Below the pieces are notes generated by a model. It saw nothing but the letters and a program-made list of their open reading frames with translations. It did not search any database and was not told where the DNA came from. Positions 8,031 through 16,634 of a stretch of 64,000 nucleotides of DNA are shown in pieces. Positions within the stretch are counted from its first letter, which is position 1. Every line of letters starts with the position of its first letter. Position numbers and translations under genes: made by a program. The stretch is from positions 1,472,001 to 1,536,000 of the forward strand of contig OZ219753.1 in assembly GCA_964291315.2 (NCBI GenBank). Direction: 5' to 3'. Source of the stretch: Candidatus Poribacteria bacterium. GTDB lineage: Bacteria > Poribacteria > WGA-4E > WGA-3G.

Positions 8031-9146
8031 TTATTCGTCAGTATCGTGGCGGCCGAGCAACTTGTCAAAAAAACCACCATTTTTGCTGTGATGAGGTTCC
8101 CCACGCAGTTTTGCGAATTCTTCTAACTTTTCACGTTCAGCTGCATTTAGGTTCTTTGGTGTTTCGATTTCTATGGAGACAATCAGATCCCCCCTATGGG
8201 TACGTCTGTAATGCGGAACGCCTTTGTTGGGAATCCGGAGTTGGGCACCGTACTGCGTGCCGGGGGGGATTTCTAACACTTCGGACCCATCAATCGCATC
8301 GACTTTGATCTTCCCTCCGAGTGCTGCTTGAATAAACGAAATTCTGGCGGATGTAAAGAGGTCGTCTTGATCGCGTTGGAAACGTTTATGCGGCGTAACA
8401 TTAATCACGACAAACAGGTCCCCGGGGGGCGCACCGTTCGCCCCAGCTTCACCTTCGCTATGCAACTGGTACTTGAAACCGGTATCTACGCCTTTTTCAA
8501 TATTGAGTTTGATATCGGTTGTATTTTGGACAAGACCTCTTCCGTTACAAGGTGGGCATGGATCTTGTACGACTTCTCCTTTGCCTTGACAATTAGGGCA
8601 GGTTCGAGATATTGAAAACAGGCCTTGGGATTGGCTGATCTGGCCTCTGCCATAGCATTGCGGGCATGTTACAGGGCTTGTTCCCTCTTTAGCACCACTA
8701 CCGGTGCACGACGGGCAAGATTCGATGCGCGGTACCTGAATTGTGACCTGCTTGCCGTGGATAACGTCCTCAAGTGAGACCTTAAGATCGTATTGTAAGT
8801 CTCGCCCGCGTTTAGGCGTTCGCCGGGTCGCCCCGAATCCACCGAGCAGGTCTCCAAAAATGTCTCCAAAAACTTCGTCAAAGTTCACCCCAAAGCCTCC
8901 GAGATCGCTGCCTCTGCCTTCCAATCCGGCGTGTCCAAATCTATCATAAAGTTGCCGTTTTTCAGGCGTACAGAGAACCTCGTAAGCTTCTGTCGCTTCT
9001 TTGAATTTGTTTTCGGCTTCCATATCTCCAGGATTTTTATCTGGATGAAATTTAATGGCGAGTTTGCGATAAGCCTTCTTTATCTCATCTTCATCAGCTT
9101 CACGTGTCACGTTCAGTATCTCATAATAATCGCGTTTTTGAGTCAT
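8031..9146 (-). CDS. dnaJ: Chaperone DnaJ
   Basis: J domain with HPD, G/F region, four CxxCxGxG repeats. Confidence 0.97.
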
Positions 9147-9166
9147 CGGTCCTACCTTCCTATTGA

Positions 9167-10003
9167 CTACTCACCGGCATCAGCGTCACTGTTGTTTGTG
9201 CGTTCATCGACTTTTTCTGGGTCTGGCGGTCCCTGCGAAACGACTACTTGTGAGGCACGTAGAATGCGGGTGTGCAACATATACCCGCGTCGGAACTCTT
9301 CAATTACTTTACCCTCTGCGACGGCATCTGAGGGAACAGCCATCAGTGCCTCATGCCGATACGGATCAAACGATTTACCAGCAGCCTCAATCGGGGTGAG
9401 TCCGTGGTTTTTGAGCGAATCGAGCAGCTGCTTGTGAACCAATTGTACACCTTCCTTGAAGGTAGCAAGCTCCGATTGAGTATCGCTGCTTTCTACTTTT
9501 CCGTTGATACTTTGCATTGCGGCTTCGAGACTATCAAGCACCGGCACCATTCCTTCCAAAATTTCTTCGTTAGCGAATTTAAGCTTTCGCTGATAATCAG
9601 TTTCCATGCGTTTTTTGGTGTTTTCAGCCTCAGCAGCTGTCCGGAGCAGAAGGTCACGTTCAGCTTTATATTCGTCGTGAACGTGTTGCACAGCGGTCTC
9701 CACCTCTTTTTCTAGCTCTATACGAAACAGTTCCTCCCGTTCAACTTCATATTGATTGTGCACATGTTCAACGATCTCCACCACTTCTTCCGTGACTTTT
9801 GAGTTGAGATTAGTGGACATTTCTTCAACAGGCTTGATGTGTGACTCTATCTCCTTTTTTACCTCCGATTTGATCGTGTCAAGTGCTGTCTCTGCGATTT
9901 CACGTAGACGTATGATGAATGTTTTTTCTTCACACTCGTCAGAATCGTTGTCTGGAGTGGATTCTATTTCTGCCTGTATTTGTACCTCTTTAGTGTCAGC
10001 CAT
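9167..10003 (-). CDS. grpE: Nucleotide exchange factor GrpE with a long N-terminal extension
   Basis: [40 protein letters not shown]. Confidence 0.92.
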
Positions 10004-10073
10004 AATCAAGTCCTTTTTATTTTAGTCTGTTTGTTTCTGTCGATTACAAATCCAATTTCTAGCGATATTTCGC

Positions 10074-10820
10074 TTAACCGTGAACGGCATCAGCGAACGC
10101 TTTCATCAATTCAAAAGAGCCATTTTCTTCAAGAATGTTGCCTGTTACGACAAAATCGGTGCCTGCTGCCACCTTTTTCGCAGCAATTTCGGGGGTGCGG
10201 ATGCCACCGCCAACAATTAACGGGATACTGATTTGCGCTTTCACTGTAGAGATCATCTCGTTTGGAACCGGATGGGTTGCACCGCTGCCTGCCTCTAAGT
10301 ACACCATCTGCATACCGAGATATTCTGCAGCTAAGGCGTGCGGGCCTGCTATGTCGGGTTTATTGCGCGGAATAGGTATTGTCCCACTCATAAATTCAAC
10401 TGCAGTTCTGTTTCCGCCCTCGATTAACATGTAACCCGTGGAGATGGGTTCGAGTCCGTGGTGCTGTATCCACGGGGCAGCTTTAACTTGTTCACCGATG
10501 AGATAGTTTGGGTTGCGTCCACTGATAAGACTCGTGTAGAGGATAGCATCCGCGTGGGGTGTCAAGTGCATCGAGTCACCAGGGAAGAGCACAACCGGAA
10601 GTCCTGTCTCTTGCTTGATGGCTTCTGCAATCGGATCTAAATCGTTCGTTAGAAAACTACCGCCCAATAAAATCGCATCTGCCCCTGCTTCTTCAATCTC
10701 ATGTGCAAGTTTCGCGCATTTTGCGACCTTGCACTGCTCCGGATCGAGCAAGACAAAATAGCCGGCCTTATGCCTTTTCAGAGCCTCGTTGAAGTGGTTC
10801 ATTACCCAATTTGATCTCAA
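10074..10820 (-). CDS. Geranylgeranylglyceryl phosphate synthase (GGGPS/PcrB family, group II-like)
   Basis: LLDP, ADAILLGGS, LPVVLFPG, SLISGRNPNYLIGEQ, TGYMLIEGG, YLEAGSGA, LIVGGGIR, VVTGNILE. Start is TTG 10820 or ATG 10802. Confidence 0.9.
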   Translation of the reverse strand: MRSNWVMNHFNEALKRHKAGYFVLLDPEQCKVAKCAKLAHEIEEAGADAILLGGSFLTNDLDPIAEAIKQETGLPVVLFPGDSMHLTPHADAILYTSLISGRNPNYLIGEQVKAAPWIQHHGLEPISTGYMLIEGGNRTAVEFMSGTIPIPRNKPDIAGPHALAAEYLGMQMVYLEAGSGATHPVPNEMISTVKAQISIPLIVGGGIRTPEIAAKKVAAGTDFVVTGNILEENGSFELMKAFADAVHG

Positions 10821-10912
10821 ATGCGGTCATCCCTTTTAACCGTGCTAAGTCCACACTCACATATTGCCCTTTCCGGAAGGATTTGCACGCTCTCTACTTC
10901 CCTCATAACAAA

Positions 10913-10941
10913 ATTTTACCATATTTACGCTGATTTGTCAA
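10913..10941 (-). promoter_or_regulatory. Sigma70-type promoter for GGGPS-grpE-dnaJ-prmA
   Basis: Minus strand TTGACA-N17-TAAAAT with TG extension. Confidence 0.75.
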
Positions 10942-11089
10942 ATTCTATTACCCCGGAGGAATACAAAATAAGCTTCTTCTTATCGGGGTCCCCTCTTATC
11001 CGTTCGCGTCGATTTCTCTTCTTGTAGGATTTCCGGGCAGAGACCTCTTCTTTCTCTATCCAAGAAACCGAAAACTGCATTGGCGTTTG

Positions 11090-11938
11090 TCATAGCAGTA
11101 TCCCGATGTAGATTGCACCAAGACCCACAAATATGTCCCATTTCATCCAACGTTGAATGGATGCACAGCTTTCGCTTGAAGCATCACGCAGCAACCGAAT
11201 TGCTAATCCAATAAGTACTAAATCAACACCGATAACTACCCCAAACAGATAGTGCCACGAGTACCATCCGAATAGGTATGGAACAGGACTAAATACGATA
11301 ACAAGTGCCATGAAACCGAGGGCTGCTCCCACAGCAAGCCGTGGATTAAGAATAGCAAGCGTTTTGACACTGTTTTTCAAATCGCCCTCTATATCCTCAA
11401 TATCTTTGATAATTTCCCTCGCCGCTGTGAATAGGAACGCAAAGATCGCCGGAACAAGTGTGCCGTGCACCGAATCTATCGCTACACCACTGCCAATGAA
11501 GGTTAAACCTGCCAAACTGCCGACGACTAAATTTCCCACAAAAGGAACACGTTTCAGCCAGAAAGCGTAACAGATAAGCGCAAGAGATACGAGAATGGCA
11601 ATACTTGCAGCGTTGCTGTTAATAAGTGTTCCGAACCAAATACCGACTGCAATGAGAATTAGTGCGAAAATCAGGGCGTGTGACCTCTGAATTCGCCCGG
11701 AAGGCAGGGGTCTCCGCGGACGATTAATCCTGTCTATGTTGTAATCACAGTAATCGTTTATAGCGTTTCCTGCGGATAGAAGACATAGCGCTGAAACAGA
11801 AACTAGCAGGATCCGAACATCCAAAAGATCCTCCGTGCGCCCTTGACTCGCAAATACCCCGCCCAGCCATGCGGAGACAAAAGCGATGAGTCCGTTGAGC
11901 GGTCGTGCTAGTTCAAGATAAGCGATCCCTGTTTTCAC
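11090..11938 (-). CDS. Digeranylgeranylglyceryl phosphate synthase-like UbiA prenyltransferase (DGGGPS)
   Basis: LELARPLN, GNAINDYCDYNIDRINRPRRPLPSGRI, YAFWLKRVPFVGNLVVG, AREIIKDIEDIEGD, KTLAI; multiple TM segments; next to GGGPS. Confidence 0.85.
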   Translation of the reverse strand: MKTGIAYLELARPLNGLIAFVSAWLGGVFASQGRTEDLLDVRILLVSVSALCLLSAGNAINDYCDYNIDRINRPRRPLPSGRIQRSHALIFALILIAVGIWFGTLINSNAASIAILVSLALICYAFWLKRVPFVGNLVVGSLAGLTFIGSGVAIDSVHGTLVPAIFAFLFTAAREIIKDIEDIEGDLKNSVKTLAILNPRLAVGAALGFMALVIVFSPVPYLFGWYSWHYLFGVVIGVDLVLIGLAIRLLRDASSESCASIQRWMKWDIFVGLGAIYIGILL

Positions 11939-11976
11939 TGTCTGAAGCCCATCAGTTGCTTGAGTCGTTCAGCCCG

Positions 11977-12402
11977 TTAAGGATAACAAAAGCCGAATCC
12001 TTTTTTATAGCATTCTATAAATAGGACGAGTGTTCCGAACCAGTAAAGGTGACGCGGTAACAGAATGGCCGAACGAAAAGTTAATATGAGAATACCGATT
12101 CGTGTTGTCCAAGTGGCGATGTTTTGTTTGGGTCGGATGTTCATAGCGGGGCAAGAGCTGCAATGAGATCGGCCAATCTCCAATAGCATGACCACCTTTT
12201 AGGTCAGGAAATATTGTAGTGAGGTTGTAAATCAGTATTAATGCATGTATGGGGAAAGTGACACAGGCATAATTACAGTTAGTGCTTGTGAAGATATACT
12301 GCTATGATGGAATGGTAAAAGGAGGCACAGCCGAACCGAAAGAGACGGGTCCAAAATTGCTAAGGTATTTACACTTCGTGGTGTTTTGTCTCCAGTGGTG
12401 TC
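11977..12402 (-). pseudogene. Decayed fragment of a second DGGGPS/UbiA paralogue
   Basis: DTTGDKTPRSVNTLAILDPSLSV aligns with DIEGDLK-NSVKTLAILNPRLAV of the neighbouring gene. The same frame continues through three stop codons into the 11977-12195 ORF. Confidence 0.5.
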
Positions 12403-12403
12403 C

Positions 12404-13480
12404 CTACGAGGCATCCTCCGATTCTTGAATTTTTGCTTCAAGTTCAGCGACCCGTTTTTGAAGTTTAGTGAGTGCTCGGATCAGTTCTGGCAACTTACGA
12501 GTAGCAGCGTGAATTCGCAATTCCTGTTTATGAGGGCGCGCGGGGAATCCGGAAAGATGGCTTCCAGCCGGCATATCCTTGGTGACCGCGGACTTGGCGT
12601 AAACTATACTGTCGTCACCGAGTGTTAAATGTCCTGCAGCACCTGCATGTCCGGCGATATTTACGCGGTCACCGAGTATAGTGCTCCCGGCGATACCGGC
12701 TTGGGCTGCAAGACAGCAGTCTTCTCCAATGACGACGTTGTGCGCGATCTGAACGAGGTTATCCAGTTTAGTACCTCGTTTGATAAGGGTTTCAGAAAGT
12801 GTTGCTCTATCGATGGTAGTATTCGCGCCGATCTCGACATCATCCTCAATCACGACGGTGCCGATCTGCGGGATCTTATGATGTCGGTTGCTAACCGGCG
12901 CGAATCCGAAACCGTCGCTGCCGATAACAGCACCACAGTGGATGATGACCCGATCACCGATAGTTACCTCTTCACGGATACTAACGTGTGGATAGATAAG
13001 CCCATCAGCCCCTATTTTACTACCTTCACCGATGTAGGCGAACGGCTGAATGACGGTATTATCTCCGATTTCAACGCTATCGGCTATATAGGCGAACGCT
13101 TGAATCGAGACATCCACGCCAAGTTTAACGTTCTTTCCGATAATAGCAGTTTCATGGATGCCCGGGAGCGCGCGATGGTCTTTGTCCCATGAGAACATTT
13201 CCAAAACTCTGACAAAGGCCCAATATGGATTTTCAACACGAATCGTCGGCTTTCCGTTGTTACCACTGACGCCCTGACCAATGATAATCGCACCGGCTTG
13301 TGTGGTTGCTATAGCAGCGAGATACTTCGGGTGAGCAACAAAAGTAATTTGAGTCGGAAGTGCTTCTTTAATTCCAGAGACTCCCGTAATTTCAATATCG
13401 CCGTCCCCAGAGAGGTCGCCATCTAGGTGTTCACAAATTTCCTTGAGTTTCATACCTTTTAGCCGTAATCCTTTCTCCAT
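12404..13480 (-). CDS. lpxD: UDP-3-O-acyl-glucosamine N-acyltransferase
   Basis: Hexapeptide repeats, IGSDGFGFA, KIPQIGTV, DNLVQIAHNV. Alternative start 13453. Confidence 0.95.
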   Translation of the reverse strand: MEKGLRLKGMKLKEICEHLDGDLSGDGDIEITGVSGIKEALPTQITFVAHPKYLAAIATTQAGAIIIGQGVSGNNGKPTIRVENPYWAFVRVLEMFSWDKDHRALPGIHETAIIGKNVKLGVDVSIQAFAYIADSVEIGDNTVIQPFAYIGEGSKIGADGLIYPHVSIREEVTIGDRVIIHCGAVIGSDGFGFAPVSNRHHKIPQIGTVVIEDDVEIGANTTIDRATLSETLIKRGTKLDNLVQIAHNVVIGEDCCLAAQAGIAGSTILGDRVNIAGHAGAAGHLTLGDDSIVYAKSAVTKDMPAGSHLSGFPARPHKQELRIHAATRKLPELIRALTKLQKRVAELEAKIQESEDAS

Positions 13481-13527
13481 AGACTTGACTGATTTCAGCC
13501 ATGTTACGGAGTTGAGGCGGTGGAGCG

Positions 13528-14088
13528 TTATTCAGCGCTTTCAGCAGTTTCTTCGTTCATCAAGCCGATTAACCGCTGTGTCAAATCAAATTTTTCTTTC
13601 ACATAGAGTGTAATAAGACGTTTTTCGAGAATGATGTCAAAATTTTCAGCTTCACCGACTTTGATGATGAGTTCTTGGAGGCTACTGTAAATGGGCTCCA
13701 TCAACTTTTGTTCTTCTTCAAGCAGGCCTTGTTGTCCTATTTCGACTGCCCGTTGGTATTCCTGCTGTTTGAGGCGAATCTCGTTATCTAAACCCGCTGT
13801 CTGCGCCTTTTCGACAAAGAGCTCGGTTTTTATCTTTTTTTCTTGCAAGGTTTGTATGTCGTTAGCAAGTTTGCCCAAGTTCGCCTTTAATTGTTCACTT
13901 GCCGCTTTGAGGATCCCTGTGGCATCTGTCGCTTGTTTAGAGCCCTCTAAAACTAATTGGGTGTTCACTACGCCGATTTTAAAGGATTCTTGCCCGATGC
14001 TTCCCGAGCTCAAACAAAAAGCAGCGAGAAAAACTGCGAATAATAGAGTTAAACGTGCTTGGCAAGCACGCAGCCGAATTGATTTCAT
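13528..14088 (-). CDS. skp: OmpH/Skp periplasmic chaperone
   Basis: Signal peptide, KIGVVN, coiled coil, FDIILEK...DLT; lies between bamA and lpxD. Confidence 0.88.
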   Translation of the reverse strand: MKSIRLRACQARLTLLFAVFLAAFCLSSGSIGQESFKIGVVNTQLVLEGSKQATDATGILKAASEQLKANLGKLANDIQTLQEKKIKTELFVEKAQTAGLDNEIRLKQQEYQRAVEIGQQGLLEEEQKLMEPIYSSLQELIIKVGEAENFDIILEKRLITLYVKEKFDLTQRLIGLMNEETAESAE

Positions 14089-14177
14089 AATTAAGTCCTC
14101 TGTTTTGAAAATGATATTGATAACTTCGTCTCCTGAAATTGGCGAAGACACCTACAAAACAGGTGTCTATCGTCCGG

Positions 14178-16634
14178 TTAGAAGCCGGGGCCAACGGTGA
14201 AGTGGAACTTACCGGCTGGTTCGCCTGTAATCCGATCTAAACCGTAACCCCAGCCGAGGCGAACTAGCATGCCTAGCGCAGTGAGACGTGCTTCAACACC
14301 GAGTCCGCGTTTCATGTTGATCTGCCTGAAAATGTTGCTTGTGTTTTCATCCCAGACTTGTCCTATATCGAAAAACAGGGCAGCAGTGAGTTGCTGAGAA
14401 ATAGGAACGCGGTATTCAAGGTTAGCAAAGAATAGTTTATCGCCGCCATAGGGATTAACAACGCCATCCTTATTTGGATCGGGGTAAATTTCCCAGTCTT
14501 CGTAACCCCGGATAGAGTCCACGCCGCCGAGGAAGAAACGTTCGTAAAATAGAAAATAGGAATCGCTGCTTTTACTCCGCATGAGACCAGCCCGTCCGTG
14601 CAGGGCGACAACATGATTCCACCAAGGGTTGTAGAACCAGCTCGTATCCGCGTAGTATTTCTGAAATTGATTGTCCGCCCCTAAAATACCCCCTGAGTAC
14701 TCGTAAGAGACTGTATTGAGCGATCCCCCAGCTGGATCGAATAGCGAAGTTCGGTAGTCCCGGGTGTCCCTTCCTAAAGTGAAGCGGATACTTCGCGTGG
14801 AGCGACTATATTGTTCAAACTCTTCGTTATTTAGTTTCTGGGTGCTTGTTTCAACGTATTCGTTACGGAAGCTCACTGAAGCGTCAATATCTTGTCCAAT
14901 CGGATGTCCGAGCGTCAAAGAAGCACCTCGCCGGCTCCACATATAGCGATCGTAGTTGTAAGGACCATAGAGACTGCTACTGCGAAGCGCGGAACCTACC
15001 GTTCCATAGTAGCGGCGGAAACGGCGGTTGTCATAAAGGCGGGCGTTCAAGCGAGTGGGGGTACCCAAAATCCATGGCGTCCCGAAACTCACCTCGGCGG
15101 TATGATGATCCCGTGTCCCTAATTCGCCCTTCAGATGGACACGATAGGCACGCCCGCGGAAGTTATTTTGCCCTACTTCTGCAACACCGAAGATGCCGCC
15201 TTCACTCCCGTAGCCACCACCAAGGGTTACCATTCCTGTCCGGGGGGATTCAGCGATGTTTACTCTTAATTCTTGTCGGTTCTCATCCTCAGTGGGGCTT
15301 GGCACAAAATCGACAGCGCGGATGAAGGAACCCATCTGGAATAAGCGTTGCCGCGCTTTACGCAGCGATTTGACATCTAATAATTCATCGGATTTAATGC
15401 CCAACCAATCCAATTCGCGTCTGACAACGTACTCCTTCGTTTTTTCTAGACCTGTAATGACGACGTTACCAATGATTGTGACATCACCCTCGTTGATTTT
15501 CAAGGTGATGTTAACCACCCCGTTTGATTCATCAAAGAAAGGTGTAGGCAGGATTTCTGAGAGGAGGTAACCCTTATCAAAATAAGCCTGCTGTAATTTT
15601 CCGATCGACTCGTCAAACGTGGCTCGATTAAAAATTTCACCTTCTGCAGGATCGAGCATGCCGCGTATTTTCTTTTTCGAGAAGAGCGTTTTTGCACCTG
15701 CCTCCAATTCAAGTGTGTACGTTCCAACAATAAATTCGGGGCCTTCGTCAACACTAATATCAAGCATCAACCCTGTTTTGTCTTCAGTAAATCGCTTTTC
15801 ATAACCGAGGATTTTTACCTGCGCAAAGCCTAGGTCTTGGTAGTAATTGCGAAGGTTCAGCGGTAAGTCTTCTTCTTCAAATAGCATCTGATCGAACGGT
15901 TTACCAATCCGAGTTCTGAGTTTCTTTTGGAGCTTATTACCGGCGACCCGTTCATTTCCGACAAAGTTGATCTCCTGGATTCGGACTCTTGGGCCCTCGT
16001 TTATTTCAAACGTCACTTGAACGGTATTTTCATCAGGATCTAGGTCCCCCAGATGTGTTTGGATACCCACGAGGTAATACCCTTTTTCATGATAAAACTT
16101 CTGTAATGCGCGCTCGCTTCCCCATCGATGCCGATCGCTATAAATCTCGGAGGGACGCAGTGTCACTTCATCTTTGAGTTTGCCGACGCTCACGTTTTCA
16201 TTTCCGATGATGTTGATTCCTGATATCTTTGGATTCTCAACGACTTTATAAACGATTTCGAGCCCGCCTGCTCCAGAAGGTCTAACATCTATGTCAACTT
16301 CAGAGAAGAAGCCTGTATCTTTGTAAAGACTCTTTAGGTCCTCAGTGAGCAGTTCTTCGGAGACTTCATAACCGATCTGGGTCTGAATGAGGGTGCGGAG
16401 CATATCTTCAGAAGTCGTTTTCACGCCCTCAAACGAGATTTTCTGCACAAGAAGCATGGAATCGACAAGTGGCTTGGTTACGGCTGCTGGCGCGGCGGAT
16501 TCTGTAGATTGTTTTACAGTGGCGGCAGATTCGGGACCAAGCACTGAGGTTCCCTGTTCTTCTGCAACTACGGAGAGTGCTGCTATGCCGATGATTATAT
16601 TTATCAGAACAAGAGTGTTTTTTAGCGCATCCAT
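14178..16634 (-). CDS. bamA: Outer membrane protein assembly factor BamA
   Basis: Five POTRA-like repeats, RFFLGGVDSIRGY, C-terminal FHFTVGPGF. Confidence 0.95.
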   Translation of the reverse strand: MDALKNTLVLINIIIGIAALSVVAEEQGTSVLGPESAATVKQSTESAAPAAVTKPLVDSMLLVQKISFEGVKTTSEDMLRTLIQTQIGYEVSEELLTEDLKSLYKDTGFFSEVDIDVRPSGAGGLEIVYKVVENPKISGINIIGNENVSVGKLKDEVTLRPSEIYSDRHRWGSERALQKFYHEKGYYLVGIQTHLGDLDPDENTVQVTFEINEGPRVRIQEINFVGNERVAGNKLQKKLRTRIGKPFDQMLFEEEDLPLNLRNYYQDLGFAQVKILGYEKRFTEDKTGLMLDISVDEGPEFIVGTYTLELEAGAKTLFSKKKIRGMLDPAEGEIFNRATFDESIGKLQQAYFDKGYLLSEILPTPFFDESNGVVNITLKINEGDVTIIGNVVITGLEKTKEYVVRRELDWLGIKSDELLDVKSLRKARQRLFQMGSFIRAVDFVPSPTEDENRQELRVNIAESPRTGMVTLGGGYGSEGGIFGVAEVGQNNFRGRAYRVHLKGELGTRDHHTAEVSFGTPWILGTPTRLNARLYDNRRFRRYYGTVGSALRSSSLYGPYNYDRYMWSRRGASLTLGHPIGQDIDASVSFRNEYVETSTQKLNNEEFEQYSRSTRSIRFTLGRDTRDYRTSLFDPAGGSLNTVSYEYSGGILGADNQFQKYYADTSWFYNPWWNHVVALHGRAGLMRSKSSDSYFLFYERFFLGGVDSIRGYEDWEIYPDPNKDGVVNPYGGDKLFFANLEYRVPISQQLTAALFFDIGQVWDENTSNIFRQINMKRGLGVEARLTALGMLVRLGWGYGLDRITGEPAGKFHFTVGPGF

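Follow-up and report, generated by a model that had tools for sequence, protein, structure and literature searches.

A conserved pair of genes for putative archaeal-type ether-lipid synthases in the envelope-gene neighbourhood of Candidatus Poribacteria

Can a bacterium that makes lipid A also make the isoprenoid ether lipids of archaea? This question is raised by two neighbouring genes in a 64,000-nucleotide stretch of a Candidatus Poribacteria genome (G000:C4:1472001-1536000, hereafter the window; the genome measures 4.4 Mb in 4 contigs and is 95% complete). One gene encodes a UbiA-family prenyltransferase of 282 amino acids (11090-11938, minus strand; PF01040) resembling digeranylgeranylglyceryl phosphate synthase (DGGGPS), and the other a 248-amino-acid geranylgeranylglyceryl phosphate synthase (GGGPS) of group II in the PcrB family (10074-10820, minus strand; PF01884). 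A sequence-only reading had described a co-oriented UbiA and GGGPS pair, about 270 bp apart, directly after bamA, skp and lpxD, and this arrangement was recovered with a gap of 269 bp. The motifs it quoted were likewise located in the two open reading frames (ORFs), i.e., GNAINDYCDYNIDRINRPRRPLPSG, LKRVPFVGNLVV and AREIIKDIEDIEGD in the UbiA protein and YLEAGSGA in GGGPS, and its guess of a Poribacteria-like host agrees with the named close relatives of both proteins, which are Candidatus Poribacteria. The enzymatic reading of the pair is well supported at the level of sequence comparison. We consider it likely, from homology and structural modelling, that the two genes specify a working GGGPS and DGGGPS of the bacterial clade, and putative diether lipids of the digeranylgeranylglyceryl phosphate (DGGGP) type are probably made. 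The production of archaeol-type lipids and their membrane role are what we still infer, and the substrates, products, stereochemistry, amount and cellular location given below are likewise predictions.

The assignment of GGGPS follows from family models and solved structures. The protein scores above the cut-offs of PF01884 (158.3 bits, cut-off 23.9), TIGR01769 (226.7 bits, cut-off 161.55) and NF003198 (293.2 bits, cut-off 247). Its best matches in the PDB are the group II enzymes 4jej and 4mm1 (~184 bits, E ~2e-53), and together with 6nke and 6jo3 these span 155-184 bits, whereas 2f6u of group I (37 bits) and the heptaprenylglyceryl phosphate synthases (HepGPS/PcrB, 32-34 bits) are more distant, with E ~1e-7 to 1e-8. 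The earlier placement in group II is thus borne out, as PcrB/HepGPS and group I reach only 32-38 bits where 4jej/4mm1 reach ~184. By alignment, the protein keeps Y130, Y174, E176, the phosphate loop G178-S-G180 and the group II Thr of VVTGN, at a position taken by Asn in group I. The roles of the Tyr/Tyr/Glu residues, the phosphate loops and the Thr are taken from the accessible part of a review (PMC9385802). Its numbering does not follow the chain indices, and the GGGPS residues were matched to it by alignment and motif. In common with group II GGGPS from Flavobacterium johnsoniae (4jej) and from Methanothermobacter thermautotrophicus (4mm1), it has the catalytic Tyr/Tyr/Glu and the phosphate motifs. 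The hexameric Methanothermobacter enzyme has an aromatic anchor Trp, the dimeric Flavobacterium enzyme has an Arg at the same aligned position, and the Poribacteria protein has Phe143; a hexamer is possible, because Phe143 aligns with the aromatic anchor. PcrB of Bacillus subtilis, a heptaprenylglyceryl phosphate synthase, is a bacterial member of the same Pfam family and also makes an ether of glycerol-1-phosphate (G1P). Yet, it differs from the Poribacteria protein in belonging to group I, using a C35 donor, forming no second ether bond and having no UbiA partner, and it is distant in sequence (E ~1e-7, 32-34 bits).

The UbiA protein matches PF01040 with 146 bits, and its closest sequence in the PDB is DGGGPS of Methanocaldococcus jannaschii (MjDGGGPS; 6m31, E 3.8e-36), to which it aligns over its full length (residues 6-280). 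Chlorophyll synthase comes second (E 4.5e-8), and no further UbiA-family structure was found below 1e-3. An AlphaFold2 model computed from a 54-sequence alignment reached a predicted local distance difference test (pLDDT) score of 96.5, and a Foldseek search with this model returned 7bpu/6m31 as the best match (E 5e-15, template modelling (TM) score 0.79), followed by a UbiA homologue of Aeropyrum (E 1.9e-7), with an Archaeoglobus homologue also behind. The motifs NxxxDxxxD, Y..K and DxxDxxxD are present as N61, D65, D69, Y124, K129, D179, D182 and D186. These residues are identical to N62, D66, D70, Y125, K130, D180, D183 and D187 of MjDGGGPS (6m31/7bpu; ~32% identity over the full-length alignment), which the accessible part of the review lists as catalytic or substrate-positioning (PMC9385802); the two proteins differ in their hosts, archaeal for MjDGGGPS and bacterial here. 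Given these E-values, the TM score and the tree placement described below, the protein is DGGGPS-like rather than a MenA, UbiA or CyoE enzyme, as had been proposed. Both genes are intact and under purifying selection, with ratios of nonsynonymous to synonymous substitution (dN/dS) of 0.10-0.12 for the UbiA gene (0.07-0.12 overall) and 0.04-0.07 for the GGGPS gene when compared with the three nearest relatives, for which dS is close to 1; pairs at greater distance are saturated. The genome encodes three other UbiA paralogues, i.e., an MqnP/UbiA-like protein, heme O synthase (CtaB) and a second, divergent DGGGPS-like protein. Since the MqnP-like protein and heme O synthase exist, the classical UbiA roles are covered elsewhere. 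The second DGGGPS-like paralogue (G000:C2:81963-82883, minus strand, the same gene as L139:6961-7884; 132 bits to PRK12884) shares its strand with its two neighbours, a gene for a right-handed beta-helix/NosD-like protein and one for a sulfatase.

The placement of both proteins among their relatives was examined with a scan of one genome per species, using one motif pattern and a 12-sequence alignment. Of at least 587 confirmed matches, the best 80 were kept, and they comprise 19 loci from Poribacteria (one of them, L030, by tree position), 26 from other bacteria and 35 from archaea, a sample that is skewed to near relatives and does not include archaea of the Thaumarchaeota, Aigarchaeota, Crenarchaeota and Korarchaeota (TACK) group. 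A quick IQ-TREE analysis of the UbiA proteins covered 83 rows, with one truncated sequence (L068) left out, three rows as the outgroup and no ChlG, EboC or MenA sequences in the tree; branch support was given by the Shimodaira-Hasegawa-like approximate likelihood ratio test (SH-aLRT). In this tree, the Poribacteria proteins form a single clade (SH-aLRT 96) nested in a bacterial clade (94) that also holds Fidelibacterota, Ignavibacteriota, Kryptoniota, KSB1, Latescibacterota and a Cloacimonetes-labelled bin, and the bacterial clade adjoins archaeal DGGGPS groups. The tree thus groups the UbiA protein with the DGGGPS of archaea and of FCB (Fibrobacteres-Chlorobi-Bacteroidetes) lineages and not with another UbiA clade, while the MqnP-like, CtaB and second UbiA paralogues of the same genome fall outside the DGGGPS clades. 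Homologues of GGGPS were found in 32 of the 34 tree genomes searched, including 21 of the 22 non-Poribacteria bacteria with such a UbiA protein. The GGGPS tree (51 rows) is congruent with the UbiA tree, with support of 100 for the bacterial clade and 99 for Poribacteria (19 rows), and one divergent Poribacteria row stands unresolved beside the Poribacteria clade. A recent horizontal transfer of the pair was rejected, as its GC content (0.470) is the same as in the flanks and each tree recovers Poribacteria as monophyletic; on this evidence, the pair appears as inherited within Poribacteria and not as a recent import.

The distribution of the two genes over 151 Poribacteria genomes bears on whether they act together. 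The UbiA gene is present in 122 and the GGGPS gene in 121 of these genomes, each in 21 of 22 genera, and the tallies per genus are equal for both except for one fragmented g2 genome (both genes in 53/56 genomes of g1, 1/20 of g9 and 0/1 of g11; UbiA in 32/38 vs GGGPS in 31/38 of g2). Several g2 genomes retain both genes at distances from each other of 50 kb to over 1 Mb. Losses have occurred in at least three genus-level groups. In g9, 19 of the 20 genomes have neither gene at E<=1e-20, and these genomes are 88-99% complete, many of them being single contigs (e.g., G015, G034 and G059). The locus of G078, which is without both genes, reads lpxD, 194 bp, a gene for a SpoU-family RNA methyltransferase, 149 bp and grpE, so this genome lost both genes and retained the SpoU gene that normally stands between them. 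The coupling counts come from related, not independent, genomes with no species tree behind them. The genomic evidence for a functional coupling of UbiA and GGGPS is unusually clean. As a separate observation, the gene order downstream of lpxD is altered in G015.

The gene order around the pair is also conserved. On the minus strand of the window, bamA with five POTRA stretches (14178-16634; PF01103 (Omp85) and PF07244) is followed by skp/ompH (13528-14151; PF03938, 77 bits, syntenic in relatives), lpxD (12404-13480; Pfam LpxD and Hexapep), a gap of 465 bp, the UbiA gene, the gap of 269 bp, the GGGPS gene, and finally grpE (9167-10009; PF01025) and dnaJ (8031-9146) as downstream neighbours conserved in synteny, both on the same strand. 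Upstream of the UbiA gene, bamA, skp and lpxD are found in 17 of the 19 Poribacteria loci, with bamA at a distance of 1.8-3.9 kb in these 17. The pairing itself is kept in relatives, as GGGPS lies within 10 kb of UbiA, 1.3-5.5 kb downstream, in 16 of the 19 loci. The direct adjacency implied by the sequence-only reading holds for this genome but not for most relatives, in which a SpoU-family RNA methyltransferase gene accounts for the typical 1.3-kb spacer. A full SpoU-like gene (L023:10771-12066) contains PF00588 and an MRM3-like domain, and a tblastn search with this ORF found a remnant of its first 39 codons at 11052-11168 on the minus strand (59% identity, residues 1-39), overlapping the 3' end of the UbiA gene. 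The 269-bp spacing is thus due to deletion of the SpoU-family gene in this genome; the next SpoU-like matches, on C1 and C3, have 27-35% identity. Taken together, the pair appears to be held in an ancestral block of lpxD-UbiA-(SpoU)-GGGPS-grpE. This envelope-gene context is conserved synteny and not proof of function.

Between the two genes, a promoter-like site (TTGACA-17-TAAAAT with TG; 10913-10941, minus strand) lies ~90 bp 5' of the GGGPS start. It has 11 of 12 consensus matches, the region holding eight such sites in total vs 7.0 in shuffled sequence, and is a hint only of a promoter upstream of GGGPS. No terminator-like sites were found within 9000-13600, and an Rfam search of 9800-12600 returned no RNA elements. 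Three runs of a single study yielded contigs that span the junction between UbiA and GGGPS, one of them identical and one with 33 differing positions, and the assembly may stem from one of these runs.

Outside Poribacteria, the two genes are unlinked, with a GGGPS gene in 0 of the 26 non-Poribacteria bacterial (FCB) loci. In 15 of these loci, 13 of them strong cases, an Omp85/POTRA gene of ~590 codons lies directly 5' of the DGGGPS-like gene and in the same orientation (L039:8146-9909, L044:5519-7222, L045:8215-9972, L040:8033-9775 and 11 more). These loci are from Ignavibacteriota, Kryptoniota, KSB1, Bacteroidota-labelled bins and the Cloacimonetes-labelled bin, and the two ORFs overlap by ~10 bases in four of them. 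A homology of this adjacency with the bamA context of Poribacteria was not adopted, as the ~590-aa protein is a separate paralogue and BamA-sized proteins are encoded elsewhere. The literature search found no paper combining 'DGGGP synthase' with BamA, or DGGGPS with 'outer membrane protein assembly'. The Poribacteria genome also encodes an Omp85 paralogue of 634 aa adjoining a B12-binding radical SAM protein of 667 aa (G000:C4:541205-542122, minus strand, and C4:543392-545392, plus strand), and the latter matches no specific NCBIfam family above cut-off.

If the enzymes work as predicted, the soluble TIM-barrel GGGPS would place a geranylgeranyl chain onto C3 of a glycerol phosphate and form the first ether bond. 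The likeliest acceptor would be G1P, since the Tyr/Tyr/Glu residues that determine the stereochemistry are conserved. The nine-helix membrane UbiA protein would then add a second geranylgeranyl chain at C2, yielding DGGGP (unsaturated archaetidic acid), and ordinary bacterial CdsA and head-group enzymes could convert DGGGP into ether phospholipids, as with the Cloacimonetes pair in Escherichia coli. The Cloacimonetes enzymes are the nearest precedent: they formed geranylgeranylglyceryl phosphate (GGGP) in vitro and phosphatidylglycerol (PG)-archaeol in E. coli, according to the accessible part of Villanueva 2020 (PMC7852524), to which the further statements on Cloacimonetes in this paragraph are also limited. 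In Ca. Cloacimonetes as in Poribacteria, the same two families occur in a diderm host with a fatty-acid lipid pathway, CdsA is present without CarS, the gene trees are congruent and the genes are found close together. A GGGPS/DGGGPS pattern like that of the present trees is described for the FCB superphylum and related candidate phyla, and the Poribacteria proteins lie within the bacterial clade of FCB homologues; the tested NIOZ-UU Cloacimonetes sequences were left out of these trees. There are also differences, as Cloacimonetes are reported to be without egsA/araM, whereas this Poribacteria genome has a gene resembling that of G1P dehydrogenase (G1PDH). Unlike in Cloacimonetes, the Poribacteria pair stands within bamA-skp-lpxD ... 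grpE-dnaJ, usually with SpoU in between, and no archaeal-like geranylgeranyl reductase (GGR) was recognised.

The boldest proposal is that Poribacteria naturally build mixed membranes, with archaeol-type isoprenoid diethers beside lipid A and fatty-acid lipids, and that the genes have been fixed in the bamA-skp-lpxD-UbiA block since the origin of the phylum. We put this forward tentatively, and several observations weigh against the enzymatic reading beneath it. First, the accessible part of Villanueva 2020 states that bacterial homologues have never been tied to archaeal lipid production (PMC7852524), and the present locus is in no RNA run listed. Second, the pair is missing in 29-30 of the 151 genomes, including 19 of the 20 genomes of the near-complete g9, and is therefore dispensable. 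Third, it is not a tight two-gene operon, because an unrelated gene intervenes in most relatives and GGGPS has its own promoter-like site. Fourth, the UbiA protein scores below the DGGGPS equivalog models NF009521, NF009522 and NF009523 (219.7/269, 212.2/296 and 175.9/353 bits, score/cut-off), and its top NCBIfam models, PRK12884, PRK12882 and PRK12883, are each under cut-off; it is therefore not filed under these narrow archaeal models. The same DGGGPS models are also missed by four of four other proteins of the bacterial clade and by one of five archaeal proteins (Aciduliprofundum), the four archaeal proteins passing at least one model being those of Methanosarcina, Methanolobus, Halohasta and Methanobrevibacter.

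The accessory genes add further points of this kind. The sequence-only reading had noted no G1PDH, geranylgeranyl diphosphate synthase (GGPPS), CarS or GGR gene in the window, and all Fe-ADH_2, polyprenyl_synt, CarS-like and GG-red-SF matches indeed fall outside C4:1472001-1536000. The genome-wide search it suggested was partly successful, as G1PDH-like, short-chain synthase, CdsA and GGR-like genes were found but no CarS, and none of them co-varies with the pair. The G1PDH-like Fe-ADH_2 gene (C1:612095-613150, plus strand) has NF002022 as its best model, at 116 bits vs a cut-off of 413, and among PDB entries it matches those of G1PDH with 58-69 bits and, at the top, the 'glycerol dehydrogenase' 3ce9 with 72 bits; its relatives are named G1PDH by JGI and 'iron-containing alcohol dehydrogenase' by NCBI. 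It is present in 61 of the 151 genomes, and its distribution is mismatched to that of the pair, with 51/56 in g1, including three genomes without the pair, and 0/38 in g2, most of which bear the pair. The gene (= L138:7096-8154) is followed 12 bp downstream by a gene for an M19 membrane dipeptidase and is flanked by genes for a PP2C phosphatase, a GT9 heptosyltransferase, ThiI and RNase HII, with no lipid genes among them. Two polyprenyl synthases are encoded, one long-chain and one short-chain of the IdsA/GGPPS type (C3:331705-332760), the latter under equivalog cut-offs and present in 138 of the 151 genomes, pair-less ones included. In favour of the enzymatic reading, on the other hand, are the precursor and downstream genes that do exist, namely this short-chain synthase and a Dxr gene adjoining the CdsA gene. 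CarS was not found genome-wide, the sole PF01864 match being CdsA-like (111 bits to NF008635, with a weak 27.7 bits to CarS). The best TIGR02032 match, a GGR-like flavoprotein, reaches 133.5 bits vs a cut-off of 158.8, its best named model being a halogenase, and it is present in 140 of the 151 genomes, g9 included. In many g1 genomes (e.g., G066, G087, G133 and G107), the GGR-like/halogenase-like match contains one in-frame TAA or TAG near its N-terminus, which may reflect only an alternative start site. The G1PDH-, GGPPS- and GGR-like genes are not claimed as pathway partners, as their distributions do not follow the pair. Among the eight largest of 15 radical-SAM matches, no named NCBIfam match to a tetraether synthase was found, and NCBIfam may hold no such model.

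The product may also be minor or specialised. The predicted chemistry could be true, and the pair could still yield an envelope- or stress-linked ether lipid, or a modified monoether like that of Bacillus, rather than a bulk membrane component. Dispensability in 29-30 of the 151 genomes, the lack of a recognised dedicated CarS or GGR and of any accessory gene co-varying with the pair, and the presence of the usual envelope and lipid genes of bacteria (lpxD, bamA and cdsA) are in keeping with such a role, as is the statement in the accessible part of Villanueva 2020 that no bacterium has been shown to make such lipids naturally (PMC7852524). The strong purifying selection and the occurrence in 21 of 22 genera, on the other hand, fit an important role equally well, and the minor product is best regarded as a possibility that we do not favour.

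That the two genes specify a working GGGPS and DGGGPS would be contradicted if the UbiA protein prenylated another acceptor in vivo, with GGGPS acting alone and the neighbourhood being no more than inherited gene order. This could be argued from the scores under the curated DGGGPS cut-offs, from the functional diversity of UbiA families, for which the accessible part of Coleman 2019 warns of misannotation, from the unrelated SpoU gene between the two in most relatives, and from the FCB genomes, in which the genes are unlinked (GGGPS at 0/26 loci). Yet, the presence and absence of the two genes are coupled near-perfectly over 151 genomes, including those with the genes far apart, and one genome lost the two while keeping the gene between them. 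The trees are congruent, 21 of 22 non-Poribacteria bacteria with the UbiA protein also carry GGGPS, DGGGPS is the nearest solved enzyme by a wide margin, and separate MqnP-like and heme O synthase paralogues serve the classical UbiA roles. We therefore regard a non-DGGGPS function as improbable.

When prenyl groups are transferred from diphosphates, the forward reaction is strongly favoured; this genome can supply isoprenoid diphosphates itself, and the pair is also found in free-living-type deep lineages of the phylum. It is thus most improbable that the pair serves to salvage or remodel archaeal lipids acquired within an archaea-hosting sponge instead of de novo synthesis, even if the G1PDH-like gene, a candidate source of G1P, is in just 61 of 151 genomes, and the accessible part of Coleman 2019 raises salvage for bacteria without G1PDH and names a catabolic reverse reaction as one possibility.

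With two working ether-bond enzymes as the preferred reading, Poribacteria are, going by their genes, a new phylum for the known bacterial GGGPS/DGGGPS system. In the NCBI taxonomy, they are a candidate phylum incertae sedis outside the FCB group, and the accessible part of Villanueva 2020 describes bacterial co-localisation of the pair as seemingly restricted to Cloacimonetes (PMC7852524). Automatic annotation at NCBI and JGI already names both proteins, and the literature search, which covered main texts and not supplements, found no paper linking Poribacteria to GGGPS/DGGGPS genes. A 2026 preprint on sponge ether lipids (10.64898/2026.06.23.733905) covers the elb, agps, ger and mss pathways, and the terms GGGP, DGGGP, G1PDH, PcrB and isoprenoid are absent from its text as far as accessible. 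Poribacteria are not mentioned in the accessible main text of Coleman 2019, and the accessible table of Yokobori 2016 has no EgsA/AraM tick for them.

The main evidence from living organisms for a leaky lipid divide comes from bacteria that carry the two archaeal ether-bond enzymes, so far FCB lineages that are mostly uncultured. Poribacteria would add an independent candidate phylum in which the pair is near-universal, inherited, under selection and lost together, with at least one genus that also has a G1PDH-like gene. The near-co-localisation throughout the phylum bears on the published idea that co-localisation is the ancestral bacterial state. In addition, g9 and a few other pair-less species offer, against their pair-bearing relatives, a natural contrast for comparative lipidomics. 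Poribacteria rank with the most abundant symbionts of high-microbial-abundance sponges, and their high biomass in sponges makes direct lipid analysis realistic. If such lipids are made, the isoprenoid ether lipids of the sponge holobiont could not be assigned to archaea alone. Should the mixed-membrane proposal hold, sponges would have in Poribacteria a bacterial source of isoprenoid ether lipids that has gone unrecognised, and the mixed-membrane stage of the lipid divide would have a natural test case that is accessible.

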